Position numbers and translations under genes: made by a program. Shown here piece after piece: positions 9,250 to 28,253 of a stretch of DNA of 64,000 nt. Position 1 is the stretch's first letter. Every line of letters begins with the position of its first letter. The notes under the pieces are model-generated. The model was not told the origin of the DNA, did no database searches, and worked only from the letters and a program-made list of their open reading frames with translations. This DNA is from a virus: the IMG/VR virus record IMGVR_UViG_3300007511_000004, positions 32,001 through 96,000 of that record; one strand, given 5' to 3'.

Positions 9250-11736
9250 ATGATGGCTGTAGCAATTAAACATAAGAAGAGTTCTGTAAGTGACAACGCG
9301 CCGGGAACTGGCGACATTGGTTATGGCGAATTTGCCATCAACTATGCGGATGGTAGGCTATACTACAAGAACTCTTCAAATGCAATTAAGAACTTCATTG
9401 ATTCGGATTTAGTCCAGACGGCTATTACCACTACAGTCGATCAGGCATACCTTAACAGCAAGAATATTAATGCTGATACCCTTGATGGTCAACATGGATC
9501 ATATTACTTAGATTATAATAATTTTGTCAATACTCCTGCAGGTGGGTCCTCATGGGATTCTGCCACCACTAGAACGGTATTTAGTGTATCAGGTGATTTG
9601 GCTTATGATAGTGCTACTGGCCAATTCAGTGTTACTACATATAAAGATGCGGACTTCGATACTAGATTAGGGACAAAAACCACCGCTAATCTGACCGAAG
9701 GCAGTAATCTTTATTATACTGACACACGAGTTACCTCCCATGTAGATGCGGCGTACGTACAGGCAAGACAGGACTTTGCATATGCATCGTTAACTGGCGC
9801 GCCGAGTATCCCAACATTGGGTAATGATTATGTCGACTCTGGCCAGGTATCATCTATTATTACGGCAGACGTTGATGCAGCCTTTATTAATGCGCTAACT
9901 ATTGATGCCGACACACTTGGTGGGCAAAATAGTGCATATCATCTAAATTATAATAACTTTACCAATACCCCGACAATTCCATCTTTAGGTAATGACTACG
10001 TTGACTCTGGTCAGGTATCATCCATTATTACGGCAGATGTAGACGCGGCATTTATTAATGCGCTAACTATTGATGCCGATACACTTGGCAGCCAGGCAGG
10101 AAGCTATTATCTCAATTATAATAACTTTACTAATACTCCAACGATCCCATCTTTAGGCAACGACTACGTTGACTCTGCTCAAGTATCATCAATCATCACA
10201 GCAGACGTTGATGCAGCCTTTATTAATGCGCTAACCATTGATGCAGACACACTTGCAGGTCTTGCGAGTAGCTATTATTTAAATTACAACAATCTCAGCA
10301 ATAAGCCTACACTACCATCTCTTGGAAATGATTTCGTAGATAGTGCTGAAGGAAGAAAACTAATTTCGGTAACTGATGCCGGTGGGGATGGCTCTCTATC
10401 CTATAATAATGGTACAGGCGCCCTTACCTACACGGGGCCTTCTGCTTCGGATGTACGAGGACATTTCTCGGCAGGTGAAGGTGTATCGATCTCGAGCGGA
10501 GTGATATCAATTGCTCAGGCTGTCGATTCAACCGAGGACGTATATTTCGGAAGTGTTACTACTACGAGTAACATTATAGTTGGTGGGAACCTTACAGTAA
10601 ATGGTACTACTACCACACTTAATACTTCCACTCTTGACGTTGAAGATCTTAATATCACTGTTGCCAAAGACGCAGCAGATAGTGCTGCTGCAAACGGTGC
10701 TGGGCTTACAGTTGATGGTGCTGGTGCAACTCTTCTTTATAACCATAGTGGCAACCGGTGGGATTATAATAGAAGTATTAGTATCAATGGTAATCGTGTT
10801 CTAACAGTAGGCGACGAAGGCGCAGGTAACGGCCTTGATGCAGATACTTTAGATGGTCAGCAAGGATCATATTATCTCAATTATAATAACTTTACCAATA
10901 CTCCGGCTACAGATAATATCTTTAAGAACTTTGCAGTAAGTGGACAATCAACGGTTACTGCTGATACCAATAATGATACCCTAACCCTTGCAGAAGGATC
11001 TGGGGTAACCCTCACCACCAATGCCGGTACTGATACGATTACAATCTCCGCATCGTCTGGCGCGCCAACACAACCATCACCACCCGCCTCACCCTCTGAT
11101 GGGGATTTCTGGTGGGATGATTCCGCTGGCGATCTATACATCTATTATGTTGATAGCAGTTCGGGACAATGGGTACAAGCTTCACCTTCTATTCTGGCAG
11201 ATAACGCAGTCACCTATGCTAAGATGCAGGATATGACCACTGCACGAATTTTAGGACGTAATACCGCCGGTTCAGGAGATCCGGAGGAATTAACGGCAGC
11301 TACTGTCAGAACCATGCTTAATGTCGAAGACGGCGCTACTAACTATTCTCACCCGACCCATCCTGGAGATGACTTTAGTGTAGATACTGGTGCTTTAACC
11401 GGTGCGGTAGTCGTATCTGATATAGACATTAACGTCACTACGGATACGTCGGGTCACGTGACGGATGCCAACGGCTCAGTTTCTACCAGAACTTTAACAC
11501 TTGCTAATCTCGGTTATACTGGTGCTACCGACGCTAATAACTATTCTCACCCGAACCACACGGGTGATGTTACATCGTCGGGTGATGGGGCTACTACTAT
11601 TGCAAATAATGCAGTCACCAAGGCCAAAATGGCAAATGATGCAGTAGGGTCAGCTGAACTAGATGATGTAACATCCTTAGTAATATACAATTCTGGCGGA
11701 TCAGCAGTCAAAACTTTATACGGAGCCGGTAGCTAA
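9250..11736 (+). CDS. long tail fibre-like protein with internal repeats
   Basis: [16 protein letters not shown]-terminal domain, repeated DADTLDG-x-YYLNYNNF motifs, GDFWWD domain. Confidence 0.75.
9820..10340 (+). repeat. three tandem 168-bp (56-aa) repeats within the fibre gene
   Basis: [14 protein letters not shown] starts recur at 9820, 9988, 10156 and 10324. Confidence 0.9.
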
Positions 11737-13172
11737 TGGCAAGATTAAATTTTCCTAATAACCCCTCAAATAATCAAGAATATACCGCCAACGGAAATAA
11801 GTATAAATTCCGTCTGAAGCCCGGTACCTCCCACGGGTCTTGGCGGGCGACAGCCTTCCAGGATGCGCCTAGAGGTATAGCAGCTGCCGTTGAATTCGGG
11901 ACAGTAACAACCGGGTCCGCAGGATCCGATGCTTCGGTTTCTAATTCCGGTACCTCAAGTGATGCAGTTTTCAATTTTACTATTCCGCGGGGAGACACTG
12001 GTCAAACTGGTGCTAAGGGTCAGAAAGGCGCTGTTGGCGCAACCGGAGCAAAGGGTCAGAAAGGCGCTGTTGGCGCAACTGGTAGTACTGGTTCTAAGGG
12101 TCAAAAGGGCGAGCTGGGATTAACTGGTGCTAAGGGTAATACTGGCTCGACTGGTAGTACTGGCTCGACGGGTAGTACCGGGGCAAAGGGTAATACTGGC
12201 TCGACTGGTAGTACTGGTGCTAAGGGTAATACTGGCTCGACTGGTAGTACTGGCTCTACCGGCTCGAAGGGGCAAAAGGGTGCCACCGGCGATATCCCCT
12301 CGTCGCCGACATTTACCGATGGATATGTCAATGGCTGGTGGAGAAATAATACCTCAGGCAAAGGTCTATATAACCAAGCAACGGGTCAACACTGGTATTC
12401 CGATAACGATGATTATTGGAATATTGCCGGTGGTACCGCTGCAAACGGTATTAGATTTAGAGACGACCACGACGGTACTATTCGGGGTTATATGTATGTT
12501 GACCAATCAAGTAACGTTGGTTTCCTAAACTCTGGCGGTCAATGGTCAATCCGTTGTCATATTCCCGATGGCGAATCACCTAACATTTACTTTGAAGAAA
12601 ATGCAAACACAACTTGGTCTGGCGACCCTGGCAATAACGAAGGTAAAATTGAATATCACTCTGACAGATTCTACATTGCAGCAGGGGCAAATTCGAACCG
12701 GGTTTGTCAATTTAGAAGGTCAGGTTCTGACGTAGCTTATGTTGACAACTCAGGGATTTACACCGGAACCGCAACATCAGCTCGATGGGCGGACGTTGCA
12801 GAGAGATATGCAGCAGATGGGGTATATCCACCGGGCACGGTACTTGCTATTGGTGGCGATAAAGAAGTAACCGAATATAAAGCTGGTATGCCCTTAGCTG
12901 GATGTGTCTCCACTAATCCTGGTGTACGGATGAACAACCACTTCGAGGTAGAAGACGAGAATTCTCCTGAAGCAGTTCTTCATCCATACGTTGCGCTTGC
13001 GGGGCGTATCCCAGTATCCATCAACGGGTCGGCTAAGAAGGGTGATTATATTGTAGCTGATGACAATGGTAAAGGCAAGGCCGTTTCGACCTTGCCCTCT
13101 GACATCAATTTCACGTTGATCGTCGGGATTGCATTAGAAGATGGTACAGATCTAGTTGAAGTGAAGGTCTAG
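11736..13172 (+). CDS. collagen-like tail fibre with C-terminal autocleaving chaperone (peptidase G2/IMC-like) domain
   Basis: 34 uninterrupted G-X-Y triplets; C-terminal ADVAERY...GCVSTNPG...VALAGRIPV...KGD...IVGIALED. Confidence 0.8.
11991..12296 (+). repeat. collagen G-X-Y repeat (34 triplets, no proline)
   Basis: [12 protein letters not shown] ... GAT GDI read directly from the translation. Confidence 0.95.
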
Positions 13173-13745
13173 TAAGTCTCCACAAGTACCCTCTGTAACC
13201 GGGATATCCCATTTATCGATCATCGCCTTATAAGCTTTATCCCAGATAGGTTGTAGATCAGCGTTCCCGGCATCACCTTGTCGGACACTATCCTCTGCCA
13301 TAGTGTGTTCGGGATTATGTCGTACGAAATAGACCTCGTCAAACTCTTTAGCCTGTTCTACTGCCATCTTTTCGTATTCAGGTTCGAGTTGACGATCACA
13401 AAGTCCTAACTCATGCGCCACTTTATTGAATACTACATAATCTAGGGGTAATCGCTTAGTGATGAATACGTCGCAACTATATTCATGTTCGAGCATTTGA
13501 CTCCAATGTCGATGGAATAACCAGCTGACCGAATAATAATTGCCCCCGATTTCCTTACCAAGAATTTCATGATCCATAAACATAGTAGATCTAACAGTTT
13601 CGGGCATATAGGTTACATTAGCACCTCTTACTCCAAACTTCTCTCGTTCAAGTAGTTTAATACAAATAGTATTTTTTCCCACCCCGTGCGCGCCTACGAC
13701 CGCGATTCTTTTATCGGATTTCCCCAAGGTCTTCTCCCTCATCAT
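13152..13745 (-). CDS. P-loop NTPase/kinase (AAA_28/NadR-like)
   Basis: [13 protein letters not shown] Walker A; ITKRLPLDY resembles the DRxxxD motif; last gene of the minus-strand operon. Confidence 0.7.
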
Positions 13746-14292
13746 TAATAGTATATTGTGATAGATTTAGGGTCTGCATCGTTTTAGTATCGAATTCAAG
13801 CCCAAAATACGTTAAGTTTGTTATAGCAGGTTTTCTTATTGGATCCATGTCAGCGAAATGATCATGCACTAGGTTAACATCATTATGTAAAAAATAAATC
13901 TTAGCTTTATCTAACTGTCTTTCAAGTGTATAATATAATCCTATGCCTGATTTTAAAGGGTCTAATCTAGATCCCGGTGGAAGAGATGGTATAGGGTGTT
14001 TAGATAGATCCTGATCGTATATCTTAAGGATAGGAGAATCCTCGAACTCGATAGCATAATAATCACAGAACGCGTGGGGTTGAACATTGAATCTATTTCT
14101 AATATCTTCATCAGGATGCTGGTCATAGGTAATATTAATACTGGTATCACTAACACCGATAAGCTCAATACCCTCGTCTGTGATCCATGGACACTTAGCT
14201 CGAATCCCCATAGATTCTATGAGACCACGAGCTTTATCAGGCCTAAAGAATTCCTGCCTAGTACCTTCGGTTGTGACTTTCTCTTCAATCAC
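13711..14292 (-). CDS. hypothetical protein
   Basis: 193-aa ORF overlapping both neighbours in the operon. Confidence 0.6.
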   Translation of the reverse strand: MIEEKVTTEGTRQEFFRPDKARGLIESMGIRAKCPWITDEGIELIGVSDTSINITYDQHPDEDIRNRFNVQPHAFCDYYAIEFEDSPILKIYDQDLSKHPIPSLPPGSRLDPLKSGIGLYYTLERQLDKAKIYFLHNDVNLVHDHFADMDPIRKPAITNLTYFGLEFDTKTMQTLNLSQYTINDEGEDLGEIR

Positions 14293-14677
14293 CTAATTCT
14301 TCCAAATAGTATTCGTAAACATCCGGTACCATCCCATCATCTCTATGTGATATATCAATTTCCTTGATAATCGCGTCGTATGTTTCCGGATCCTCATGAT
14401 AGGGTTTAAAATAGGGATCATCGGGGAGAAGATTCGGATATGATAATACGTCATAAAAGGTCTCGTTGAAATCTTCAGCAATCCAATTGGCATAACATAT
14501 TGCCACGAAATAAGACTTGGCCGGGTAGATCCACTTATCAACTCTTTCATAAAAGTGTTTAATTGCATCTGGTATGATAGTATCGGGCGCCCAGGTTATC
14601 TCGACTCGATTTAGGTCGTCTTTGGTGATATCCTTTAATCTCCGATATACCTCTTGTCTAACTTGCCATTCTTTCAC
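14285..14677 (-). CDS. hypothetical protein
   Basis: 130-aa ORF overlapping both neighbours; YPAKSYFVAICYA core. Confidence 0.65.
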   Translation of the reverse strand: MKEWQVRQEVYRRLKDITKDDLNRVEITWAPDTIIPDAIKHFYERVDKWIYPAKSYFVAICYANWIAEDFNETFYDVLSYPNLLPDDPYFKPYHEDPETYDAIIKEIDISHRDDGMVPDVYEYYLEELGD

Positions 14678-15923
14678 AGATCTTCCCTTCGATTATCGCA
14701 TAATATAATTCAGCGTCAACACTATATATTGAATCTACTAATCCAACTCCCTGTGCCACACAGTACCAATTGAAGGGGTTCCAGGGGAAAGCCATCGATC
14801 GGTTAGCAACACTCTCTACATTAAAATCCGTATCAAACCTGTCATCATTATAGTAGTGTAGTAGTATAAAATCTTTTATTTCATTAATTGAATTGAGTAG
14901 GGTGGCGTCTAACTCCCTATAATCGTAACCACTCTTAATAGATTCTCCGAACAATTTTGCGGCATAGACTATGAATTCGATATTAGTTGCTTCAAGAGGT
15001 TCTACAAAGTGTGCAGCTAACCCATTCGATAATACATTCTTATATGCAATTTTAGATAGGGCACCAGCTTCAAACCTCAGAATCCTACCACCTTCAATCC
15101 CCATTTCTGCTCGGGCTTCTTCGTCACTTATCCACTTGGAAGAATAAACATATCCCCTATTATTCCGATCCTGTAGGGGGATTGACCACTCCCAGCCATG
15201 TTCTCTTTTAATAGATTCGGTATAGTAGCATGGATCTGGTTCTTTAGAATACACTAGAGCCGAATCCAGATGTAGATCGTCAAAGGGAAGGTACTTGATA
15301 TCGAATGGATGAGATAATAGTCTTTTCTGGCCAGTACAATCCACATAGTAGTCTGCTACGTGTCCCTTTATCGATACTACACCATTATCATCAATTATTA
15401 CATCATTATCGTCAATCGTATCATAATGATGATTGATCTTACCTTTTAGGAAATCCCTAAGATAAGGTGCAACCAGATCATTTTGCCAATGGAGAGCTAT
15501 ATCCCACCAAAAGGGATCGTTACTTTCCAGGTCCGGTGGGATGTCGTCTAAAGCAAGTTGGGTATAGGGGCTTAGATTCTTAACCGGTTTCCCAGCCTTA
15601 AAGATATCCGTTAGAACATCCTGATCCGGAAAAAGCCTATCGATGAATGATTCACCGAAGGGATGGAAATACTCTTCTTCAGCCCAGTTAACGAAATTAA
15701 CCCCGTACTTCACGGTTGAATTGGTTTTTGAAATGAAATCTTTTAAATCAATATCCGCTGCTCTTAGAACATCTACTACGGTCTCAGTAACACTTTCGCC
15801 TACGCCAATCGGGGGAATAGTATTACTCTCGATAAGGGTAATATCAAAATCCTTATGGAGGATGAGAGCCGAGAACCAACCAGCGGTTCCACCGCCACAT
15901 ATTAATATCTTTTTTCGGTCCAT
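14658..15923 (-). CDS. flavin-dependent (tryptophan-type) halogenase
   Basis: GGGTAGW FAD motif, GVGES, catalytic-Lys motif TVKYGVNF, WEWSIP (WxWxIP), FVEPLEAT. Confidence 0.88.
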   Translation of the reverse strand: MDRKKILICGGGTAGWFSALILHKDFDITLIESNTIPPIGVGESVTETVVDVLRAADIDLKDFISKTNSTVKYGVNFVNWAEEEYFHPFGESFIDRLFPDQDVLTDIFKAGKPVKNLSPYTQLALDDIPPDLESNDPFWWDIALHWQNDLVAPYLRDFLKGKINHHYDTIDDNDVIIDDNGVVSIKGHVADYYVDCTGQKRLLSHPFDIKYLPFDDLHLDSALVYSKEPDPCYYTESIKREHGWEWSIPLQDRNNRGYVYSSKWISDEEARAEMGIEGGRILRFEAGALSKIAYKNVLSNGLAAHFVEPLEATNIEFIVYAAKLFGESIKSGYDYRELDATLLNSINEIKDFILLHYYNDDRFDTDFNVESVANRSMAFPWNPFNWYCVAQGVGLVDSIYSVDAELYYAIIEGKICERMAS

Positions 15924-16798
15924 TCTAATAATTCTCTATGCCCATTACATCCATCTGTTAAATCGTGTACGTACCTATAGTGCTCAGTAAGACACCTGCC
16001 GAAATAATCGCAATTGCGACAAATATCTGAAACGTTCTTGATTGGCTCGATCAGCGCCCATTTACGATATTCATCAAAACTGTCTAATTCTAAGAAATAT
16101 TCGCGATCCGACACATCAAATTCCAACACGCCGAATTTTCCGCTTGGGGTAATATATACGTGATTGTTACTGAAAGCGTTATAGTTTCCCGATATAGATT
16201 CCTCTATGCGATAGAGGTTTTCAAATTCGAATGGCAGATCTAACTCTAACCACTTTTTAACAAATTCTTCATAATCACTATGCTTAACATTGTGACAGTT
16301 AGCTTGGTTCGTTGAATATGGTTTGATCTCTACAGATCGAAGATTCGAGAGTAAAGATAATTCCTGTACCATGGAAGGTACATCCATATCAAGTACATTA
16401 CGACTTGCAAGTATAAGGACTGAGATTGGTACCGGTGATACTAGCATATTTGCAAATACTATATCACTCCGCTCTCTTGCAGCAAAGTCATATGAGACCG
16501 AAAGCGATATATCATTATCGTGCATGTATGTTTTAGGAGATGCGTAATTGGTAACAATATTAATTACACCATCATAATGCTTACGAATGATCTTCTTCAT
16601 ATCATAGAAGTAATCGTCACCTAATGTTGAGATCTCCCCGCCATATAAATCGATGTGGTGAATATCCGGGATCTCGCTCAACCTCTCATCTAATACCCTC
16701 AGATCAACCTTCTTCTTATCTGCTAATTGTTCACTAGTAAGATAACAAAAATCACATCGAAAATTGCAAAGATATGTGGGGTTGATCGATACGATCAT
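15902..16798 (-). CDS. radical SAM/SPASM protein (4 of 4)
   Basis: CNFRCDFC, YGGE, C-terminal CRNCDYFGRC...GC. Confidence 0.88.
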   Translation of the reverse strand: MIVSINPTYLCNFRCDFCYLTSEQLADKKKVDLRVLDERLSEIPDIHHIDLYGGEISTLGDDYFYDMKKIIRKHYDGVINIVTNYASPKTYMHDNDISLSVSYDFAARERSDIVFANMLVSPVPISVLILASRNVLDMDVPSMVQELSLLSNLRSVEIKPYSTNQANCHNVKHSDYEEFVKKWLELDLPFEFENLYRIEESISGNYNAFSNNHVYITPSGKFGVLEFDVSDREYFLELDSFDEYRKWALIEPIKNVSDICRNCDYFGRCLTEHYRYVHDLTDGCNGHRELLEWTEKRY

Positions 16799-17514
16799 AA
16801 CAATTGGGTCTCTTTATAGTATCCTGATTTCAATTTATTCTGACCCCATAGCTGGCTGTAGCCAAGAGTTGCAATGACTGTATATCGAGTTTTATCCGAA
16901 GTGAGCTCGGTCACCTTATGTACGAATGACGGATCATTATTATTTAAGATAATGATTTTATTACGATGTGGGGTATATCTTTGGGTTATCTCTACCTTAT
17001 CAGTGAGGATATCGTCTAACGAGGTCTCCGGTCTCCAATGAGGCATAGGATCACCAGGCTTCCATAGTATATCCGGTCTACCAACTAATAACTCTCCACC
17101 ATCTTCTTCGGTGAAGTCGTCCATATTAGGATAACAGAGTATTTGAAGTAATGTTCCATCATATCCATCAAAGTGCCAGGGTAACCCTCCGCCCTGACTC
17201 ACTTTATTAATATTGACGTGTATTTCGTCGAAATCTCCGTAGACGTGTCTCCAGTAATCGAAATAAGGTAACTGAACTATATCTTGGAAAAATTCTAAAT
17301 ACTGTTGCCGACCTTTAATGTAAACATCTTGATCTCTTTGGTGATATTCCCGATCCCAGACCGGATTCTGTACGATTGACCCATAACTACTTTCGGTACC
17401 AAAAGTCTCTGACATTAGCATGCTGAATAACATAGCGCTAAAAGAAGGATCCACGTCTACAATATCAGCGCCCTTCTTATATAAATCGTTGAAGTTAGGT
17501 ATCTCTTGTATCAT
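16795..17514 (-). CDS. 2OG-Fe(II) oxygenase
   Basis: WHFD...GGEL...FVHKV...RY. Confidence 0.8.
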   Translation of the reverse strand: MIQEIPNFNDLYKKGADIVDVDPSFSAMLFSMLMSETFGTESSYGSIVQNPVWDREYHQRDQDVYIKGRQQYLEFFQDIVQLPYFDYWRHVYGDFDEIHVNINKVSQGGGLPWHFDGYDGTLLQILCYPNMDDFTEEDGGELLVGRPDILWKPGDPMPHWRPETSLDDILTDKVEITQRYTPHRNKIIILNNNDPSFVHKVTELTSDKTRYTVIATLGYSQLWGQNKLKSGYYKETQLL

Positions 17515-18025
17515 AATTAAACGTCACTACAATTCGGGCTTCGGGAGATTTGGGCTGAGAAGAACTATGGAATTTTAATCCATTGAACCACATTGTTCTA
17601 TTTGCTACAGAATCACATACACTTTCTATAGTATATTCTTTATGTTGTTCCGGTCCATTCTCTTTATATATGTAGGTTGGAGCAGTACTATCCGTTACGT
17701 AATAGAGCTGGGTTGTGTGAGGTTGCATATAGTCTACATGGGGATCATGCACCATACCACCCTCATTACTATTAAATATATATCCGATTCGTATCCGGAT
17801 CAGACGACCGAAATCTAGGTTAATCAGTGGGGATAATAATCCAAACAATCTTTTATCATTGATATTCCCATTCCGATAAACCACAGTAGAGAATCCATTT
17901 TGGTTATCACTGCCCCCTTTCTTTACCACATTCTTATTAAACGTCCATTGGGTTTCGGGAGATAGGATTTCTTCATGAATTAGTTTGTGTGAAAAGGGAG
18001 TTAGGAAATTGTCAATTATTTGCAT
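17495..18025 (-). CDS. 2OG-Fe(II) oxygenase
   Basis: IIDNFL start (ATG 18025), PHVD...FHSS...RIVVTFN. Confidence 0.8.
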   Translation of the reverse strand: MQIIDNFLTPFSHKLIHEEILSPETQWTFNKNVVKKGGSDNQNGFSTVVYRNGNINDKRLFGLLSPLINLDFGRLIRIRIGYIFNSNEGGMVHDPHVDYMQPHTTQLYYVTDSTAPTYIYKENGPEQHKEYTIESVCDSVANRTMWFNGLKFHSSSQPKSPEARIVVTFNYDTRDT

Positions 18026-19004
18026 GAATAATCCTTTCTTCAAGCTCTTTCATTAGACTGCAATGCTTTTCCACCATATCATGCTGCTTCATATCCTTTA
18101 TGGTTTTCTTGCATCCATTACAGATCTGGAATAATGCACAGGCGTAACACCCGCTATGCATAGTCTGGATATCAAGCTCTTTCTGCAGCGGGGTGAAGAA
18201 TTCACCGGCCATCTCCTTTTCGAAGTCAATGGAGTATTCTCGATCATCCCCAAATGATCCGCAACTATAATAATCGCCACTTGGCTGCATCGCTCTAATT
18301 GTATAATCACAGTCTCTATTCTGTGGACAAACCATAGCCTCATTTCGGAGTCTCTTAACCATCTGCTTCGTATTAAATTCCCATTCCATTAGACCCGATT
18401 CATAGATCTCCAGATACTTGCTATACATCTTAGATAATTGATACGGTCGGGATTGAACGCCCGAAGCCATTGCGTAGTTTAGCTTACATTCAACTCCCAT
18501 CTCCTTTGCAAGTTTGACATTATCAAGTGCGGTATCTTCATTCTCTTCGTCGATAACTGATATGAAATCGGGTCTGTATCCGACCCATTCGAGCATCTTG
18601 TCTGATACCGCCCAGAAGTCTTCTTCCGTGAAAACGCTATAATCACCCTTCAGTCTCGAGCTGCCATAATGAAATGACGTGGTTATACCCATACGCGGAT
18701 GAGTAAAAATATCGATCCACTTCTCTGGCTTCTGGTAGAAAGGCCAGAGATTAGTTGTAAAGGAAACAGTTGCTCGATGATCGTGATCGTCAAGGTGTGC
18801 TAATAGTTTCTTATAATACGAAGGATCCATCATTAAAGGATCCCCGCCATTTACAATAATAGTGTTGGTATCCGGAAACCGCTCCAGGAATCTATAGATT
18901 CGGTTAAGTTCTATTTGATCCTTGACGTCGTCTGCAATTGACGTACTTGAGCAGAAAGTGCATTTGAAGTTGCAACGTTCCGTGGGCTTAATAATTAGTT
19001 CCAT
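18012..19004 (-). CDS. radical SAM/SPASM protein (3 of 4)
   Basis: IKPTERCNFKCTFC, NGGDP, C-terminal C...C...YSC...CYACALFQICNGC...C. Confidence 0.9.
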   Translation of the reverse strand: MELIIKPTERCNFKCTFCSSTSIADDVKDQIELNRIYRFLERFPDTNTIIVNGGDPLMMDPSYYKKLLAHLDDHDHRATVSFTTNLWPFYQKPEKWIDIFTHPRMGITTSFHYGSSRLKGDYSVFTEEDFWAVSDKMLEWVGYRPDFISVIDEENEDTALDNVKLAKEMGVECKLNYAMASGVQSRPYQLSKMYSKYLEIYESGLMEWEFNTKQMVKRLRNEAMVCPQNRDCDYTIRAMQPSGDYYSCGSFGDDREYSIDFEKEMAGEFFTPLQKELDIQTMHSGCYACALFQICNGCKKTIKDMKQHDMVEKHCSLMKELEERIIHANN

Positions 19005-19630
19005 AATGAAATACCTGCATTGATGGTATACCGATTAACGTTATTATTGGTTAACCTCTTTACTGAATGTACCAAGCGGGGGTTTCCATTATTCAATAGA
19101 ATTACTTTCCCGTTAGCTGGATACACAGTGTGCTTAGTTTCGACCTCCCCGTCAGGCCAGGTTCTTTCGCCGAGTTTAAGATACGATTCCCACTCATTAT
19201 CCCATCTACTTTCCTCAGTGAAATAGATTAGGAATCCGATATCGTGATCTTCTACCCCATCCCAATGCCATCCAAGCTCCGCTGATCCGTTCCACACATC
19301 TATGAATTTTAATTTATGATTATAGCCGCAAGTTCTTTTAAACCACCCGGTGTAATGCGGATCACCGAATAATTCATTTATCACCTCTATATAAATTGGA
19401 GGAACAGACTCGACGCTTTTTTGATTGACTTGCCCCTCACGATCTCTGTGATATTTTTTAGCCTTCTCGGGTGCACCATCTGCTGCATTTATACTCCAGT
19501 CTGGCACACCTTTATATTCAATGTGATCTACCCAATTCTCAGATAAAAGCTGACCCCAGACCATAGCATTAAGATGGGTAGGCAGCTCCCATTCATCATA
19601 CCCATCCTTGTAGAATTTATCGACGTTCAT
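18995..19630 (-). CDS. 2OG-Fe(II) oxygenase (paralogue of 16795..17514)
   Basis: WHWD...LVHSV...RY; NNGNPRLVH matches NNNDPSFVH. Confidence 0.8.
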   Translation of the reverse strand: MNVDKFYKDGYDEWELPTHLNAMVWGQLLSENWVDHIEYKGVPDWSINAADGAPEKAKKYHRDREGQVNQKSVESVPPIYIEVINELFGDPHYTGWFKRTCGYNHKLKFIDVWNGSAELGWHWDGVEDHDIGFLIYFTEESRWDNEWESYLKLGERTWPDGEVETKHTVYPANGKVILLNNGNPRLVHSVKRLTNNNVNRYTINAGISLWN

Positions 19631-20091
19631 ATTGCCGTTGTTCCTAGCCGAGTTTTTCCCTCACCTGTAATATATAGCTGAAGGTCTGATACCTTGGCTA
19701 TTCTAATGATACCGTAGAAGGGCGAGGCTGTGTGATAGACGTAAGCGGGGAAGGTTACTGTCATACCAGTAGTCGGTTTAATAATATATGGTTCGAAGTG
19801 TGAGGCCAACTGCGAGGGGTAGCCACGATTAGCATTACCTCGCGGGTCGTGAAGTATTAGTTCCCCGCCCTCCCCTGAGACGTGTTCATAGTAGATGGAT
19901 GTGAAGTGAGCGTGACCGTGATTATGAGTCGCTAGCCAATAGCCAGACTGTGGGCTTGTTTCCCAGTTACGGATAGCGTGATCAAGTTGATCAAGATCCT
20001 CCTGAAAATAGATTTGTAAATATTCTTTGAATCGTGTCCCAGGATCAGGGTTACCGTTCTCTTCAACGTGTATCGGGGTGGACCACATCAT
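19627..20091 (-). CDS. putative 2OG-Fe(II) oxygenase (TIGR02466-like)
   Basis: HNH...GGELILHDPR...FPAYVYH...R. Confidence 0.75.
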   Translation of the reverse strand: MMWSTPIHVEENGNPDPGTRFKEYLQIYFQEDLDQLDHAIRNWETSPQSGYWLATHNHGHAHFTSIYYEHVSGEGGELILHDPRGNANRGYPSQLASHFEPYIIKPTTGMTVTFPAYVYHTASPFYGIIRIAKVSDLQLYITGEGKTRLGTTAI

Positions 20092-21052
20092 AAACCTCAC
20101 TTAAAAAACATGTATCTTGAGTTCTGAAACTTTGGATGTGGTTTGATAAAAAACATCCCATATTACAATACTGGAAGTGTGCACATTCAAGACAGTTGTA
20201 TTGTTTGAACCATTTCTCTTCCATCTCAAATTTGGATGGTTGATAATTCCGTTTTAGATCTTTTACTAGAATTGTACATGGGCCTGATGTTCCATCGGGT
20301 AAAATGGTAACAGTATCCATGCAGGTCATTTGCTTCTTTACCTTGTTTTGCATATCGTTAAAGGGTAGAACCTTTGGATACTTATCCAGCATGTATAGTA
20401 TAAAATCCCGAAGCATAATATCATTAGGTAGGAAGGTATCCATATTAGCTTCGGGCGTATAATAGTCAAAGTAGATACCAAATCGATCATAAAGGTAATC
20501 GAAAAACGGTACATCGTCTCTCATGAATTTCCGGATACTCGGCTTCGTCATAATGACATTCACCGATTTAATATAATCCCTATACCTTCTTACATTCTCC
20601 TGGAATATCGGAAAGGTGGTCTTATTGAATCGGGCAGAAGGGTCGTAACTAGTTAATAAAGTAACCGGATCCGATCCTAACATTATATCGAATCTTTCGG
20701 TGTTTGTAAATACGAAGTTAGTAGTAAAACAAATTTCTAGATTAATACCTTCGCTGAATGCCCAATTATTTAATTCACGTATGACCTTACCGTAATCCTG
20801 AAATACCCTATCAGGTAAAGCGTCAGCGAAGACCTCTCCGCCCATAAAATGTACACTATAGTCCTCTCGGGGTAAACTCTTAATCCGACCCTTGATTATA
20901 TCGATCTTTTCTAGAATGGTATCGATACCGAAAAAACTATTATGGTCCTGACTGCAGAATTTACAATTCAGATCGCAATATTCGAAGAGAGTGACGATGA
21001 TCTCTCCAGTCTTACCCCTTTTACCCGTCCGGCTTATTACATCAATTGACAT
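20063..21052 (-). CDS. radical SAM/SPASM protein (2 of 4)
   Basis: CDLNCKFC, MGGE, C-terminal C...PC...CLECAHFQYCNMGC...C. Confidence 0.9.
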   Translation of the reverse strand: MSIDVISRTGKRGKTGEIIVTLFEYCDLNCKFCSQDHNSFFGIDTILEKIDIIKGRIKSLPREDYSVHFMGGEVFADALPDRVFQDYGKVIRELNNWAFSEGINLEICFTTNFVFTNTERFDIMLGSDPVTLLTSYDPSARFNKTTFPIFQENVRRYRDYIKSVNVIMTKPSIRKFMRDDVPFFDYLYDRFGIYFDYYTPEANMDTFLPNDIMLRDFILYMLDKYPKVLPFNDMQNKVKKQMTCMDTVTILPDGTSGPCTILVKDLKRNYQPSKFEMEEKWFKQYNCLECAHFQYCNMGCFLSNHIQSFRTQDTCFLSEVYDVVHPDTR

Positions 21053-21578
21053 TCTTGAATACCATATTACAAACCAAACTGATCCGGGTATCTTCTCCTA
21101 GGTATGGAGTTACTTCGTGCCAGATGTAATAAGGAGCTGCGATCAATAATCCGGTTTTTGGCTCTATCTCAACATAAGGTTCTCGACAGAATGATTTCCG
21201 ATTAGTGAACCTCGGGTCGTACAGTCTCAGCTTACCGCCTTCCTCTGATTCGTTTGAATAGTAAACGGCAAAGGCATCTATCTGATCATGGGTATGACAG
21301 GATTTGAAGTCCCCACGATCCATCGGATTGATGATATTAAAAGAATCCATATCATAGTCGGGTGGATGGTCATAGTGGAAACATAGTGCATCGAAAGCTG
21401 ATTTAAAGCGCTCGCGGATAGTTCTCATATTATCAGAGACCCACAAATCCACATTATAGTCAGCGGGTTTCGTTGGAAGAGTGGCGATAATAGCCTTGGA
21501 GGTATTTAAGATATCCTTATTAAACTCGTCGCTATCATCATATTGTTTAGTGTATATAAAGGATTCAAATTCTATCAT
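21042..21578 (-). CDS. putative 2OG-Fe(II) oxygenase (TIGR02466-like)
   Basis: HTH...GGKLRLYDPR...WHEV...RISLVCN. Confidence 0.8.
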   Translation of the reverse strand: MIEFESFIYTKQYDDSDEFNKDILNTSKAIIATLPTKPADYNVDLWVSDNMRTIRERFKSAFDALCFHYDHPPDYDMDSFNIINPMDRGDFKSCHTHDQIDAFAVYYSNESEEGGKLRLYDPRFTNRKSFCREPYVEIEPKTGLLIAAPYYIWHEVTPYLGEDTRISLVCNMVFKNVN

Positions 21579-22705
21579 AACCTAAAATTATTCAATTCTC
21601 CACTATTAGCATTTTTCAATTTATAGATGTAGTTTAGGAATAATACATTTACCTTCAATCGATCTTCACATTCGAATGCCGAAGTGGAAAGGGGCTTCAG
21701 TTCTTCCGCCATGATCGAACCAATTCCCGCAGTGTCGATATACCCCAGTGACAGAGAATCGTATACAGCATCCATTATAGTATCAGATAGATTTTCCTCG
21801 AATGGGGTTTGGCTATTCTGGGTAACTGCTTGCATCATTTCAGATCGGATTGTCGAGAATCGGATATTAGGATGACGGTTTACATAATCGACTCTGTGGT
21901 ACTTTCCTTCATCATCGAATAACCAGCGGGTTCTATCATTAGTATCCTTAAGCGCTATTAGATCATCTTCAGCATTCACATCACTGATCCCGAGAACCCC
22001 TTGGACCCAGCTTTTATAGATGTTATAGAATAGGTGAGATTTGAGGAACTGAACCTCCTCGTTACATTTCTTACCCAATAGTTTTAACATCTTCTTTCCG
22101 AGGCTACCATTATGATCAGACCCGCTTGCGAGGTAATTTGCAATTAAGAACTCCACCCCGATATTAGGAATAATCTCCGATCGTAATACCGAATAATCTG
22201 CCCATGATAGATCTAACGTTATGGCATTCCACTTAGTGATAAATTCAGACTTACTTAGATAAGTAATCCCCTTAGCATTATTCTTTTGTTTTTCCAGCCC
22301 ATCGTTTGCGCCCCATAGAAAAGTAGTGGTATTTTCTAACTGGGAATTGAGACTGAATGTATTATAAATCTTCCATGCTATATCAACATGTAAAGTTTCA
22401 AATAGTAGCTTTATGAATTTAATAATTATCTTATCATAATTATCACGATTGACGTGGATATTCACTGTACCTTTATTCTTAAGCGCAGTAAAGAAATCTT
22501 TATCATTATCATATGGGGCGTCATCCCCGGTCCACAGTTCCTCTAGGTCGTCTACATTGTGCATCTGGGCCTTCAGATCCCTCCAGGCAGTCTTCAAATC
22601 TTCGAGGAAGATGGAGTTTAAATTAGGGGTAATAACCATGTTATCGACATTATTGTCCATTAAGTAATCGTACTTAACGTAAACTTTATCAAAGAGCAGA
22701 AACAT
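21575..22705 (-). CDS. hypothetical protein (376 aa)
   Basis: Long ORF overlapping its operon neighbours; no recognisable motif. Confidence 0.65.
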   Translation of the reverse strand: MFLLFDKVYVKYDYLMDNNVDNMVITPNLNSIFLEDLKTAWRDLKAQMHNVDDLEELWTGDDAPYDNDKDFFTALKNKGTVNIHVNRDNYDKIIIKFIKLLFETLHVDIAWKIYNTFSLNSQLENTTTFLWGANDGLEKQKNNAKGITYLSKSEFITKWNAITLDLSWADYSVLRSEIIPNIGVEFLIANYLASGSDHNGSLGKKMLKLLGKKCNEEVQFLKSHLFYNIYKSWVQGVLGISDVNAEDDLIALKDTNDRTRWLFDDEGKYHRVDYVNRHPNIRFSTIRSEMMQAVTQNSQTPFEENLSDTIMDAVYDSLSLGYIDTAGIGSIMAEELKPLSTSAFECEDRLKVNVLFLNYIYKLKNANSGELNNFRL

Positions 22706-23432
22706 ACTCTAATTCCTTTTGCATTTGGTGTTGAAAGTCTTCATGGATAATTTCCCCTGATGAGACCCCATATGTTAACATAGCCATGAAATTATTAGGA
22801 GTAGTCCAATAGTAAAACATATTTTTACCTTTGAACATCGGTTCGTTGAATTGTTTTTCCATATAGTATACTGGGATATCTAATGCGAGGATGGCCTGAG
22901 CCTCCTCCCATTCATACATTTTTACATAATTTACCCCAATGTAATCATAGTCGTCAATTGTCTCAAACTCGTTCTTTGCTGCTTCCCGTATCGCTTCATC
23001 ATTAATGGTAGTTACATTAAAAACTGACCCGGAAGCAATAGCGGTTAGCCACCTATTAATTATTTCAGGATTCTCTGATCGGAATTCCGCCATCTCATCA
23101 TCATTTAGAATATATTCAATATCGTAAATCTCGTCGATCCATTCGAACCCGGCTTCTTGATAGAGCATTTTAAGTACGGTCAATTCGGAATGAACCGAGT
23201 TAATGATCAACCTATGGTTCATATAGACCAGAATATAGTTTTTACGATCAGCTAATGATACCTTATCCCAGCCAACTATATTACAGGGGATATCCAGATT
23301 GCTGACGTAGGTAATCAACTTATCTTCTTTTAATATGCTTTCGCTATAATCAATATTAAAGATGATACTATCATCATTAAAATACTCCTTCAATTCCTCC
23401 ATGGGAATAGGAGCCACAGTATCTTTTATCAT
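22689..23432 (-). CDS. hypothetical protein (247 aa, acidic)
   Basis: ORF immediately downstream of the candidate precursor; no recognisable motif. Confidence 0.65.
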   Translation of the reverse strand: MIKDTVAPIPMEELKEYFNDDSIIFNIDYSESILKEDKLITYVSNLDIPCNIVGWDKVSLADRKNYILVYMNHRLIINSVHSELTVLKMLYQEAGFEWIDEIYDIEYILNDDEMAEFRSENPEIINRWLTAIASGSVFNVTTINDEAIREAAKNEFETIDDYDYIGVNYVKMYEWEEAQAILALDIPVYYMEKQFNEPMFKGKNMFYYWTTPNNFMAMLTYGVSSGEIIHEDFQHQMQKELEYVSAL

Positions 23433-23435
23433 AAT

Positions 23436-24011
23436 TTATCTACGTCCTCTTGAAGTGTGACAGTCGTAATGACAACTATAATGACAGGTATCAATGTCTC
23501 GGGTGAGGGCGGAATCCCTTACATTCCGATATGCGGTTCGTACTGATGACAGATACGATTCCATTTCACTGGAGGATATGGTCCTACCAGAATTCACTGT
23601 ACTGGAATACCCTGGCGCGGATACGGATGATCGAGCATTGTATGTTCCGGATGTGGGCTGATACGCTTTAGCAGTACTATCAATCTGCAACTCACTAGTA
23701 CCATTGTTATCGAAATATCTTCGAGCCCGCATATTCCTCATATGGGTCCAGTCAGTTGCGCCGGTGACCATCCCAGTCCGGACTGTCGAAGCAGTAATAG
23801 TTCCCCCGGAAGAACCTAGATCATTATCTGACATATATCCAGTGCTGCTAGGTAAAGATGCAGTAGAACCCCCGAACCGATCGTTAGGCATTTCGGAAAA
23901 AGGTTTACTGTTAGTCCCCCATGATACTGAGGCTTTCGCGTCGGCCGCAACATAATCCTGCCATCTCTTACGAACGTTACTTCGACTGATATTATTTGTT
24001 AAGGATACCAT
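23436..24011 (-). CDS. Ser/Thr-rich protein with C-terminal CHxxCHxxCH repeat; candidate substrate/precursor of the radical SAM cluster
   Basis: Ends DTCHYSCHYDCHTSRGRR; all three of its Cys residues lie in this tail; sits directly after the first rSAM gene. Confidence 0.65.
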   Translation of the reverse strand: MVSLTNNISRSNVRKRWQDYVAADAKASVSWGTNSKPFSEMPNDRFGGSTASLPSSTGYMSDNDLGSSGGTITASTVRTGMVTGATDWTHMRNMRARRYFDNNGTSELQIDSTAKAYQPTSGTYNARSSVSAPGYSSTVNSGRTISSSEMESYLSSVRTAYRNVRDSALTRDIDTCHYSCHYDCHTSRGRR

Positions 24012-24012
24012 A

Positions 24013-25035
24013 TTAAATCCTGTCGATCTGTTTATTTGTATTTATGTCTTTTAACAACATCATTAGAGTTTTCGGGGAGGGACATGTATCACCTTCCCAT
24101 TCTAATTGATGGCAATCTGATCCACACACGTCGAATACCGGGCATTCGAAACAAGCGGGGTTTCGATTCAATTCCTTCATTATAATACTACATCTGCCGT
24201 TTGATTTTAAAACTTCAGACGCAGGCTGATTTATATGCCCATATGCGTTTTGGGGAGCGGTATTAGGGCATCCAGCAATTGAACCATCAGCATTAATAGT
24301 AATTAACTTTTGTTCACAGTCTCGACACCAGGTACCTTGGCTCGGATTGTTTTTCTCGAACTTGGCGTAAATATTCTCCATGATTACATGATATATGGAA
24401 TCCCGGTCATTCAATTGATTGTGGTATCTAACAAACCAATTATCGATCTCTTTATTCGAAGGCCATAATCCGGAATTAAGCTTGGCGTTGCCATCCATAG
24501 TAATCCGCTCAAAGTCTAATTCATGGATACCGAGACTTGACATGTAGGCAATGATCTGCTTCGGTGGCATATCTAGAACAGATTTACTCATACTAACGAA
24601 GCATTTAACAGTATATCCCATACCCACTAATAATTTGACATTATCCTCCCATAATCTTCGCTGTTTTACATTGGCGAATCTGATAGTAGGATCCCAAGAA
24701 GTACCGATGCGCTTATTGAGAACATCCTCAAAGAATTTGAGCTTCTCTTCGGTGAGTTTATACGTAAGGTTTGATGTGATACCATAATTATCCCCATCGG
24801 TCAATTCAACGAATCTTCGCAACGAGGACACGGGCGCGAGCATTGGCTCACCACCATGAAACTCATACCAAATAGAATCTGCAGTTAATTGATTAACCCA
24901 GGCTGCAGTTGCCTCGGGATCGAAGTAGATCTTCTGACCAGAAATCCCAGAAGTGAAACAATGAGAACAATTGAGATTACAGGTCTCAGTTGTTTTCACA
25001 TAAACGGATAAGCGTTTCGGTGTCGTTAATTGCAT
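24013..25035 (-). CDS. radical SAM/SPASM protein (1 of 4)
   Basis: KTTETCNLNCSHC, FHGGEP, full SPASM CRDC...GCP...CFECPVFDVCGSDC...CP. Confidence 0.92.
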   Translation of the reverse strand: MQLTTPKRLSVYVKTTETCNLNCSHCFTSGISGQKIYFDPEATAAWVNQLTADSIWYEFHGGEPMLAPVSSLRRFVELTDGDNYGITSNLTYKLTEEKLKFFEDVLNKRIGTSWDPTIRFANVKQRRLWEDNVKLLVGMGYTVKCFVSMSKSVLDMPPKQIIAYMSSLGIHELDFERITMDGNAKLNSGLWPSNKEIDNWFVRYHNQLNDRDSIYHVIMENIYAKFEKNNPSQGTWCRDCEQKLITINADGSIAGCPNTAPQNAYGHINQPASEVLKSNGRCSIIMKELNRNPACFECPVFDVCGSDCHQLEWEGDTCPSPKTLMMLLKDINTNKQIDRI

Positions 25036-25456
25036 ATGAAACCATTAATGCCTTTTTATCGTTGATTGCCCGATGCCGGACGTTTGCCGGGATTAGTAGG
25101 GTCTCTCCAGGATGAATCGTATACACCTTACCCTCGACCTCCATCACTTTCTCTCCATCATGACATTCTATGTGAACATCATGTGGATCTGTATGCTCTT
25201 TGAATGTAGTACCATGTGCCGGATTGTAGAAGAAATGCATAGTTCTATCGTTTAGTTGATACAATCTTTCCATCTGCTCAACCTTAATAGTGCATTGACC
25301 CTCTGCTATAATAACCCCCAGTCGGGCTAAATATCCACAAAAGTCCAGATCACTATTAAGATAATGTTGAAGGCCGTCTCTATCTATATACGACACATCA
25401 TGATTTAGGTAGCACTCGGGAGAGTCTACGAAATTAAAAAAGTCTTTGAAAAACAT
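24986..25456 (-). CDS. cupin/JmjC-like oxygenase
   Basis: HTD...PGETLLIPANVRHRA cupin motif. Confidence 0.7.
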   Translation of the reverse strand: MFFKDFFNFVDSPECYLNHDVSYIDRDGLQHYLNSDLDFCGYLARLGVIIAEGQCTIKVEQMERLYQLNDRTMHFFYNPAHGTTFKEHTDPHDVHIECHDGEKVMEVEGKVYTIHPGETLLIPANVRHRAINDKKALMVSYAINDTETLIRLCENN

Positions 25457-25486: not shown

Positions 25487-25520
25487 ATTATATCAGGTTT
25501 ATCTACATTTGTAAACCCCC
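25487..25520 (-). promoter_or_regulatory. sigma70-type phage early/middle promoter driving the radical SAM operon
   Basis: Minus strand reads GGGGG-TTTACA-N17-TATAAT with TG extended -10. Confidence 0.8.
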
Positions 25521-25532
25521 TTGGAGAATATT

Positions 25533-27500: not shown

Positions 27501-28253
27501 ATGGCAGTAACCTCTAGATCAGCTTTATCAGATTACGCACTAAGAAAGTTAGGTTCTCCGGTGATCGAGATTAATGTCGATCCAGACCAAATTGAGGATC
27601 GCATCGATGAAGCGCTGGAAAAATATCGGGAATTCCATGCCGATGGAACGGTAAGGACTTTCGTTAAACATCAGATGTCCGCGGCGGATATCACGAATGG
27701 ATACATAACTCTATCCTCGGATATCATCTCAGTCACTAGAATGTTTTCCCTCACTTCTTCATTCCAAACTTCGAGGAACTTCTTCGATGTTAAGTATCAA
27801 ATGATGCTCAACGATATTACTGATATGCAGAGTTACGTTGGAGGTCTGGCTTTCTATGAACAAACCCAACAGTACCTTTCCATGTTGGACATGAAGTTAA
27901 ATGGTGCACCAACTACTACATTTGCACGTAGACAGAACAGACTCTACATCCATGGGGATACAGTTGATGGCGATCTCGTTGAGGACGATTATGTCGTACT
28001 AGAGGCTTATGCGATTGTCGATGGCACTACATATACCTCTGTTTGGGATGATATGTGGCTCAAGAAATTCGCCACGGCTCTTATTAAAAGACAGTGGGGC
28101 AACAATATGCTAAAATTCGAGGGTATGCAATTACCGGGCGGGGTCACCTTAAATGGCAGACAGATCTACGACGACGCGATCCAGGAGATTGAGAAACTAG
28201 AGGAAGACTTGAGACTGACCTATGAGCTTCCTGCAGATATGATGATAGGCTAA
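27501..28253 (+). CDS. gp13: neck protein gp13
   Basis: LRKLGSPVIEINVD...QWGNNM.KF.GMQLPGGVTLNG. Confidence 0.92.
   Translation: MAVTSRSALSDYALRKLGSPVIEINVDPDQIEDRIDEALEKYREFHADGTVRTFVKHQMSAADITNGYITLSSDIISVTRMFSLTSSFQTSRNFFDVKYQMMLNDITDMQSYVGGLAFYEQTQQYLSMLDMKLNGAPTTTFARRQNRLYIHGDTVDGDLVEDDYVVLEAYAIVDGTTYTSVWDDMWLKKFATALIKRQWGNNMLKFEGMQLPGGVTLNGRQIYDDAIQEIEKLEEDLRLTYELPADMMIG

Follow-up and report, generated by a model that had tools for sequence, protein, structure and literature searches.

The DNA analysed here, called the window throughout, is a stretch of 64,000 nucleotides (bases 32001-96000) of the 146,556-bp virus record IMGVR_UViG_3300007511_000004. The phage is a distant T4-like myovirus of marine origin; its tail sheath shares about 44% identity with the sheath proteins of Pelagibacter phage Mosig and Methylophilales phage Melnitz. 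The subject of this report is an operon of 17 minus-strand open reading frames (ORFs), running from 25456 down to 13152, that encodes four radical S-adenosylmethionine (rSAM) enzymes, several 2-oxoglutarate (2OG) oxygenases, a cupin and a flavin-dependent halogenase, together with a 191-aa protein that ends in a tail rich in Cys and His. The operon is best explained as one copy of a widespread, horizontally mobile and unnamed cassette.

Organization of the operon

At each of the 16 junctions, neighbouring genes overlap by 4-50 nt or are separated by 1-3 nt, and every real gene flanking the operon lies on the plus strand (Table 1). A sequence-only reading of the same DNA had described a 17-gene minus-strand operon, overlapping or abutting throughout, with this gene order and placed between tail-fibre and neck genes, and both the ORFs and the PHROG assignments of the flanks bear that description out. 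Its list of domains stands in large part, as the cupin, the four rSAM enzymes, the halogenase and three 2OG oxygenases (178, 157 and 239 aa) are all recovered. The 211-aa oxygenase, however, is sub-threshold, and the 182-aa protein, also read as a 2OG oxygenase, has no Pfam match. The 182-aa protein does match phrog_274, a family labelled 'DNA endonuclease V' that is also touched by the 157- and 239-aa oxygenases. Since two clear 2OG oxygenases touch the same family, the label is probably wrong for the members of the operon. The last gene had been called a P-loop kinase, a name that its sub-threshold match to AAA_28 (20.7 against 27 bits) does not sustain. The other five proteins, of 191, 247, 376, 130 and 193 aa, fall into no domain family. 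A megablast search with the operon and a tblastn search with the 191-aa protein against a phage collection gave no match, with the caveat that the collection may lack records of this genome and that the low-complexity filter may mask the 191-aa protein.

Table 1. Features of the operon and of its flanks, by position in the window.
Feature	Position	Strand	Observation
T4 neck protein gene	28258-29148	+	flank of operon, upstream side
Head-tail adaptor gene	27501-28253	+	flank of operon, upstream side
Sigma-70-like promoter TTTACA-17 nt-TATAAT with TG, upstream of cupin	25487-25515	-	11/12 matches
Cupin, 156 aa	24986-25456	-	Cupin_2, 37.5 bits
rSAM/SPASM enzyme A, 340 aa	24013-25035	-	CX3CX2C; TIGR04085 28.2 bits; phrog_1802 1e-58
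T4-type late-promoter-like box CATAAATA	24039-24046	-	27 nt before 191-aa gene
Cys-His-tail protein, 191 aa, presumed substrate	23436-24011	-	ends CHYSCHYDCHTSRGRR
Tail CHYS-CHYD-CHTS-RGRR and stop codon	23436-23486	-	Cys/His of three units and R-x-R-R invariant
247-aa protein, core partner	22689-23432	-	phrog_20767
376-aa protein, core member	21575-22705	-	recurs in related loci
2OG-Fe(II) oxygenase, 178 aa	21042-21578	-	PF13759 35.2 bits; phrog_81
rSAM enzyme B, 329 aa	20063-21052	-	CX3CX2C; phrog_1802 6e-38
2OG-Fe(II) oxygenase, 157 aa	19627-20100	-	PF13759 41.1 bits
2OG-like oxygenase, 211 aa, sub-threshold	18995-19630	-	PF13661 23.6 bits, cut-off 27
rSAM/SPASM-like enzyme C, 330 aa	18012-19004	-	PF04055 41.9 bits
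182-aa protein, probably 2OG-like	17495-18043	-	phrog_274 1e-30
2OG-Fe(II) oxygenase, 239 aa	16795-17514	-	PF13640 28.2 bits
rSAM enzyme D, 298 aa, short Cys-rich C-terminus	15902-16798	-	CX3CX2C; PF04055 27.1 bits, below cut-off
Flavin-dependent halogenase, 421 aa	14658-15923	-	PF04820 1e-62
130-aa protein, core member	14285-14677	-	phrog_20737 1e-34
193-aa protein, occasional member	13711-14292	-	homologues in Bdellovibrionota cassettes
P-loop NTPase-like protein, 197 aa	13152-13745	-	AAA_28 20.7 bits, below cut-off
Collagen-like tail fibre, convergent with operon 3' end	11736-13172	+	collagen repeat, tail-fibre PHROGs
Further tail-fibre gene	9250-11736	+	flank of operon, downstream side

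An invariant C-terminal tail on divergent proteins

The 191-aa protein belongs to a family with a signature at the extreme C-terminus, C-H-x-S-C-H-x-S-C-H-x-S-R-G-R-R-stop, which makes up the last 16 residues; in the tail of the window protein, H-x-S/D occurs three times. All 27 metagenomic homologues of the protein, down to 33% identity, carry the signature at their end. The same ending is present on proteins that can barely be aligned with it, namely ORF068 of the Ralstonia jumbo phage RSL2, gp170 of Agrobacterium phage Atu_ph07, and proteins of Sinorhizobium phage Phosso and Pseudomonas phage pPa_SNUABM_DT01. A related-locus search with the 191-aa protein alone gave no match, and the family was collected from IMG/VR by means of a degenerate DNA pattern for the tail and stop codon, which yielded at least 149 ORFs on at least 120 contigs.

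Among the matches listed, to which the counts given below for the family and its loci also refer, the ORFs are 45-309 aa long, nearly all of them 99-309 aa. The 146 distinct sequences come from more than 140 loci, and in every one the three Cys, the three His and the final R-x-R-R are invariant and terminal. The fourth position of the repeat is Ser in 145 of the 146 distinct tails, a count that is partly constrained because the pattern admitted S, T, R, C or W alone at each fourth position; the Asp variant of the window protein would escape it. No other Cys is present in 107 of the 146 proteins, and two have four repeats rather than three. Unlike this frozen tail, the body of the proteins diverges to 14-30% identity. 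As far as these sequences go, the family is large and unnamed: the 191-aa protein has no Pfam match, an NCBIfam scan found no family at E <= 0.01, and a literature text search for the tail motif brought back only German words.

The 191-aa protein was modelled with AlphaFold2 at a predicted local distance difference test score (pLDDT) of 83.5, confidently except for the tail. Searches with this model returned nothing from the PDB at E <= 1e-3 with Foldseek, and a best Z of 3.8 (root-mean-square deviation 5.1, 136 aligned residues) in a wide VIA search. Five matches at E <= 1e-3 were found in BFVD: the pPa_SNUABM_DT01 protein, an uncultured-phage protein, Atu_ph07 gp170, and two larger uncharacterized proteins of Myoviridae. 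Given the confident model and these matches, the body represents a real, shared and unnamed fold. The negative fold searches, here and for the 247-aa protein discussed below, do not establish new folds, and look-ups in the ESM Atlas were uninformative, the Atlas models being poor (pLDDT 0.34 and 0.37).

The tail protein within a recurrent cassette

The check proposed by the sequence-only reading, co-occurrence of the Cys-His-tail protein with the rSAM enzymes in homologous loci, turned out in its favour. Enzyme rSAM A was found in 79 of 120 viral loci, a count bounded, like those that follow, by flank length. Among the same loci, at least 120 in number, the 247-aa protein was found in 67, the cupin in 57, rSAM B in 50, rSAM C in 33, rSAM D in 24, and the 130-aa protein in 14. 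With iterated profiles, the counts rise to 108 loci for the 247-aa family and to 66 for the 376-aa family, the latter including ORF069 of RSL2 and members in Bdellovibrionota.

The genes recur in the order cupin, rSAM A, tail protein, 247-aa protein, 376-aa protein, rSAM B, C and D, and 130-aa protein, with 2OG genes interspersed. Marine T4-like relatives, four jumbo-phage lineages and Bdellovibrionota all show this order. The rSAM A gene lies directly 5' of the Cys-His-tail gene in most loci, and a cupin homologue is the gene immediately upstream of rSAM A in 57-71 related loci, as well as in RSL2, Phosso, Atu_ph07 and pPa_SNUABM_DT01. The 130-aa gene adjoins rSAM D or rSAM A in phage and Bdellovibrionota loci alike. 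Homologues of the 193-aa protein, for which Pfam and NCBIfam scans gave no family, are found inside Bdellovibrionota cassettes, with weak similarity also some 5 kb downstream of the cassette in Atu_ph07. The 376-aa protein has no Pfam, NCBIfam or PHROG match.

The 247-aa profile finds 523 clusters among 1.84 billion representative proteins, which argues for a system that is widespread but specific. The AlphaFold2 model of the 247-aa protein is confident (pLDDT 90.6); Foldseek found nothing similar, and the best VIA match (Z 4.6) covers 54 residues alone. Some members of this family (P0112, P0121, P0129 and P0134) carry N-terminal extensions of 130-340 residues without a Pfam domain, and the extensions of P0112, P0134 and P0139 are acidic and of low complexity.

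Cassettes range in size from 9 to 17 genes, and their carriers from T4-like marine phages of about 146 kb to jumbo phages of plant pathogens of 490 kb, and on to predatory bacteria. The sequence-only reading knew of no characterized pathway of this architecture in a phage. The cassette is not unique to the window phage and is present, unstudied, in cultured jumbo phages, where the literature treats its genes solely as unexplained accessory genes. In RSL2, FLC6 and S13, two dihydrofolate-reductase-like genes lie between rSAM B and rSAM C (L001 7822-8971 in RSL2). A second architecture, seen at L005, L016, L035, L046, L047, L051 and about 20 more loci, has two tandem tail proteins of about 127 aa directly behind a fibre gene and continues with extra genes of 340-420 aa, at least one of them rSAM-like; there are up to six rSAM-type genes per locus.

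Among approximately 185,000 species genomes, the tail pattern is present in 22, all of them metagenome-assembled genomes (MAGs), with over half from Bdellovibrionota and carrying the full cassette. In a Halobacteriovoraceae MAG, the whole cassette lies amid housekeeping genes on a 1.29-Mb contig (L149 15764-17005, L150), adjoining a Peptidase_S74 fibre-type gene and a gene for a 512-aa uncharacterized protein. Because housekeeping genes flank it, this copy appears to be chromosomal rather than an obvious prophage, and a prophage origin of the Bdellovibrionota copies was set aside on the same grounds. Bdellovibrio is known to have phage-like adhesive fibres (PMC10769870).

Enzymes of the operon

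All four rSAM enzymes have a CX3CX2C motif near the N-terminus (CNLNCSHC, CDLNCKFC, CNFKCTFC and CNFRCDFC) and a Cys-rich C-terminus, and to this extent the earlier designation rSAM holds for each. The cut-off of the SPASM model TIGR04085, however, is passed by rSAM A alone (28.2 against 27 bits); rSAM B reaches 18.9 bits, and rSAM C and D have no match. The match of rSAM B to PF04055 is below the cut-off of that model. Enzymes C and D align with SPASM maturases over the full length, though weakly (DynA in the case of C), and rSAM A weakly matches anSME, PapB, DynA and HxsB in the NCBIfam scan. Overall, the best NCBIfam scores, all far below family cut-offs, are to SPASM maturases that modify peptides or proteins, cyclophane and thioether formers among them, rather than to cofactor- or nucleotide-modifying families. 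Nothing among PDB sequences was matched by rSAM A in a phmmer search.

The four enzymes fall into separate orthogroups, as evidenced by cognate matches to jumbo-phage proteins at E values of 1e-46 to 1e-156 and cross-matches at only about 1e-4 to 1e-8. Jumbo-phage orthologues are 39-47% identical for rSAM A, 29-41% for rSAM B and 42-54% for rSAM D. The most conserved gene of the cassette is rSAM C, at 55-57% identity in RSL2, Phosso, Atu_ph07 and pPa_SNUABM_DT01 and 50-60% in Bdellovibrionota genomes.

The halogenase is clearly recognizable (PF04820, 212.7 bits against a cut-off of 21) and has both expected motifs, GGGTAG (GxGxxG) and WEWSIP (WxWxIP). Its best solved relatives are Trp halogenases and VirX1. 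It is about 100 aa shorter than the solved Trp halogenases at the C-terminal, substrate-binding end, with the alignment stopping near residue 367-412, and the shortened C-terminus might suit a bulky protein substrate. Only the window phage and its close relative L125 were found to carry the halogenase and the P-loop gene. Neither turned up among the ORFs of about 150 related loci, many of which are short, and the halogenase was also absent from five other cassette-bearing phage genomes, estimated to be 37-100% complete, none of which has a Tyr-containing tail. Judged by this distribution, the two genes are lineage-specific additions, and the view that every one of the 17 genes works on a single tail finds no support. 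Few lineages have Tyr in the tail, and that of the window phage is among them, which makes Tyr a plausible target of the halogenase. This link rests on two genomes, as the contigs of the Tyr-tail relatives stop short of the position in question.

Virion location of one homologue and linkage to fibre genes

For one member of the family, the location of the protein is known. Gp170 of Atu_ph07, confirmed as a Cys-His-tail protein by its length (296 aa) and mass, was among the proteins of purified virions, where 8 unique peptides covered 35% of it (PMC6102473, Table S5). Despite its mass of 31.89 kDa, gp170 was present in gel bands 1-9, with the peak in band 1 at the top of the gel (PMC6102473). 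The upstream products gp176 and gp177 are also on the virion list, from which the rSAM enzymes gp171, gp168 and gp165, the cupin gp172 and the 247-aa homologue gp169 are missing (PMC6102473). Trypsin cleavage of gp170 would give a single C-terminal peptide, ending in CHSSCHASCHNSR.

In addition, the cassette is linked to genes for fibres and related structures. Tail-protein genes start 0-10 nt (0-4 nt in 25 cases) after the stop codon of a fibre gene in 26 viral loci, most of which carry two tandem family members of about 127 aa. The fibre genes encode products of 92-2823 aa that share a C-terminal domain ending in ...GIAL.D.E.GEVEVKV. In the window, the C-terminal 135 aa of the collagen-like fibre are 46-62% identical to the C-terminal domain of fibres at the other loci. 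Profile and Pfam searches with this domain gave only sub-threshold matches to Peptidase_G2 and a cement protein. In Atu_ph07, Phosso, RSL2 and pPa_SNUABM_DT01, the cassette adjoins genes for giant virion structural proteins, baseplate proteins, fibres or spikes.

These observations bear on whether the tail is released. The 191-aa protein could be the long-leader precursor of a classical ribosomally made and post-translationally modified peptide (RiPP), with the modified 16-residue tail cleaved to give a free antimicrobial, signal or metallophore that acts within the infected cell or outside it. Long leaders do exist in nitrile-hydratase-like precursors, SPASM rSAM enzymes are encoded beside a Cys/His-rich C-terminal core and have RiPP maturases as their weak best matches, and 2OG oxygenases and halogenases are common tailoring enzymes. 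The 'leader', however, is a confidently folded domain in proteins of 99-309 aa, and the Atu_ph07 homologue is in the virion at or above full size. Moreover, the core is invariant over hundreds of lineages, unlike antimicrobial RiPPs, and tail-protein genes abut fibre genes. Conserved genes for a protease or transporter are lacking from every version of the cassette examined, and Pfam, NCBIfam and PHROG scans found neither family among the cassette genes, in keeping with the sequence-only reading, although three core proteins have unknown folds. We regard a cleaved peptide as highly improbable. The earlier reading had allowed for an intracellular or a virion-attached product, and the second is favoured by the folded carrier, the virion homologue and the lack of a conserved protease or exporter, the same points that make a released RiPP unlikely.

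Timing of expression

The sigma-70-like site before the cupin gene is the best promoter-like site in the region. Within the operon, the sole ATAAATA on the minus strand is the CATAAATA box ahead of the 191-aa gene, and on the plus strand ATAAATA precedes several structural genes at 26-60 nt. The element TATAAATA, at -33 to -44, is kept before the homologous gene in T4-like relatives, even though the surrounding sequence has diverged. This set of promoter-like sites fits a pattern in which the enzymes are made from early on and the structural protein receives extra late expression.

Proposed maturation of the tail

The explanation that we consider probable is that a virion protein of the fibre module has its tail covalently matured by the enzymes, and that the product stays on the protein. 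The 191-aa protein would fold as a small alpha/beta domain and present a free C-terminal tail, (Cys-His-x-Ser)x3-Arg-Gly-Arg-Arg. The four rSAM enzymes would abstract hydrogen atoms from this tail and install covalent links, and each probably performs a step of its own, since the four form separate orthologous lines. The likeliest links would be three-residue cyclophane C-C bonds from His to Ser, Cys thioethers, or both, and hydroxylations would be added by the cupin and the 2OG oxygenases. Chemistry of this kind is suggested by the motif, by the weak affinities of the rSAM enzymes for such maturases, and by the whole-protein precedents HxsA and CrpA. The 247-, 376- and 130-aa proteins would act as non-virion helpers and, in the lineage of the window phage, the halogenase may additionally act on the Tyr of the tail. 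The tail would be neither cut off nor exported; rather, the matured protein would be built into the particle beside the fibres, where a rigid and basic tail, which may bind metal, would have a part in attachment, with the fibre or the host surface as the partner.

Several points weigh against this model. Presence in the virion is known from a single proteome, that of the distant homologue gp170, and the RSL2 record carries no virion label for ORF068. The position of gp170 in the top band could reflect plain disulfides, since the loading buffer lists no reducing agent (PMC6102473). The tail is the low-confidence part of the AlphaFold2 model, the main promoter of the operon resembles an early one, an unusual feature for a structural gene, and fold searches with the helper proteins found no RiPP recognition element or known fold. 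From the observed anatomy, invariant tail, co-occurrence, fibre linkage and virion location of one homologue, we infer that the tail is the substrate, what chemistry it undergoes and what the protein does in the particle. In addition, three Cys and three His could simply bind metal, unmodified.

This last point can be developed into an explanation in which the tail is not a substrate at all. The Cys3-His3 tail would bind Zn, Fe or an Fe-S cluster as a knuckle or cluster donor, and the enzymes would modify something else, such as the adjoining fibre protein or a small molecule. Cys and His are classical metal ligands, the tips of T4 fibres employ His-coordinated metal ions, and the four SPASM enzymes require many Fe-S clusters. 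The fibre gene is linked to the cassette as tightly as the tail protein in the 26 loci described above, and modification of the tail is itself something that we infer. However, the Ser at every fourth position and the invariant terminal RGRR go beyond the needs of a metal site, and rSAM A adjoins the tail-protein gene in most loci, regardless of a nearby fibre gene. The adjoining fibre genes also vary in family (G2-like, S74 and giant structural), whereas the tail is constant. We consider a purely metal-binding tail an unlikely explanation.

Relation to known systems

The closest parallel to the proposed tail maturation is the bacterial antiphage system HXS (HxsA/B/C/D), in which rSAM enzymes are required to mature HxsA, a whole protein with HxS repeats (PMC13128918). 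As in the cassette, there are tandem His-x-Ser triplets and basic residues on a whole protein and, as proposed for the cassette, maturation takes more than one rSAM enzyme and a small helper, and the modified protein is the working product. The cassette differs in that its repeat has four residues, with a Cys before each His, and lies at the extreme C-terminus, ending in RGRR. It has four rSAM orthogroups, a cupin and 2OG enzymes, and lacks a peptidoglycan-binding domain or signal peptide; it is also encoded by phages and predators, located in the virion in the case of one homologue, and linked to fibres. In the NCBIfam scan, the HxsA model TIGR03979 was not matched by the 191-aa protein, rSAM A scored 35.2 bits against HxsB (TIGR03978, cut-off 370), and rSAM C scored 31.6 bits against HxsC (TIGR03977, cut-off 267.9). 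No HxsD-type helper was found, the 247-, 376-, 130- and 193-aa proteins having no NCBIfam match. As no Hxs family model is reached, the cassette is HXS-like at most and not a member.

A shared function has nonetheless to be considered, namely that the tail, once matured, uses its basic His-x-Ser character to bind incoming DNA or the infected cell's envelope and so keeps out superinfecting phages. Maturation of HxsA requires two rSAM enzymes, and matured HxsA blocks phage DNA entry (PMC13128918). The three H-x-S/D triplets and RGRR of the tail, the weak matches of rSAM A and C to HxsB and HxsC, and the early-type promoter of the operon would suit such a role. Against it stand the presence of the Atu_ph07 homologue in the virion, the fibre linkage and late-type promoter, and the chromosomal cassettes of predatory bacteria, which lie beside a fibre-type gene; nor is a signal peptide or peptidoglycan-binding domain detectable in Pfam and NCBIfam scans. 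Accordingly, we give superinfection exclusion very little credence.

Other known systems share individual features with the maturation proposed here. For instance, CrpC, a SPASM rSAM enzyme of Methanococcus voltae, installs thioethers on the Cys-rich protein CrpA (PMC13692751). Here, too, a SPASM enzyme acts on a full-size protein encoded alongside, with Cys as handles; however, the Crp system is archaeal and cellular, with one enzyme and many dispersed Cys, and has neither His-x-Ser periodicity nor oxygenases. Triceptide maturases (XyeB, FxsB, YhhB, GrrM/OscB and AmcB) act on tandem motifs of the form aromatic-x-small polar, which H-x-S fits, and crosslink them from a ring carbon to a C-beta. 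Their precursors differ in being short, usually cleaved peptides with no Cys interleaved with the repeats, and rSAM A, C and D score only 16-29 bits against the NCBIfam models of these maturases, for which the cut-offs are 310-450. QhpC/QhpD and the anaerobic sulfatase maturase (anSME) resemble the proposed maturation in that SPASM rSAM enzymes modify Cys in a protein that is kept as a working subunit; the Qhp system has, in addition, a flavoenzyme that tailors an aromatic residue. These systems differ in using single rSAM enzymes, other motifs and cellular enzymes as targets, and the anSME match is weak (43 bits against a cut-off of 349).

An arrangement from a similar phage background is found in cyanophage Syn9, where gp49-54 comprise tandem 2OG/JmjC dioxygenases and tryptophan halogenases, proposed to be peptide modifiers (PMC2938197). 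Like the window operon, such arrays belong to marine T4-like phages and combine mutually distant tandem 2OG oxygenases with a Trp-halogenase-type enzyme. They were described in 2010 without rSAM enzymes or a candidate substrate, whereas the oxygenases of the window are interleaved with four rSAM enzymes around a defined protein.

Possible role in fibre finishing

The size of the cassette, its retention in very different phages and in predators, and the frozen motif of its presumed target together imply a function at the fibre or baseplate that is both strong and general. More tentatively, phages and Bdellovibrionota may share a new form of fibre finishing, in which the tail of a fibre-tip protein would be forged into a rigid polycyclic structure, metal-binding or chain-linking, that is required for fibre assembly or for grip on the host or prey; we hold this to be possible but doubtful. 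To our knowledge, enzymatic covalent modification of virion proteins is almost without precedent in phages, and we know of no report of rSAM chemistry on a particle protein. If true, fibre finishing of this kind would be the first enzymatic rSAM modification of a virus particle protein. Working out the cassette might also provide new rSAM crosslink chemistry on a His/Cys/Ser scaffold and a new principle of host or prey attachment, of relevance to the engineering of jumbo phages under trial as crop biocontrol agents (RSL2, FLC6, S13 and Atu_ph07). Several carriers of the cassette are in culture.

Neighbouring genes

Immediately upstream of the operon, a 157-aa minus-strand ORF (25499-25972) was rejected as a gene, as it sits within a plus-strand gene for a 645-aa protein (25521-27458). 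The 645-aa gene has a late-type ATAAATA box 56 nt upstream, and the protein combines a Glyco_transf_25 domain (PLOD glycosyltransferase domain, 6e-46) with a C-terminal 2OG domain. In this respect it looks like a one-chain collagen lysyl hydroxylase/glycosyltransferase. At the other end of the operon, the collagen repeat of the convergent fibre (11736-13172) is free of proline and contains many G-x-K triplets, which makes this fibre a plausible substrate of the PLOD-like enzyme.

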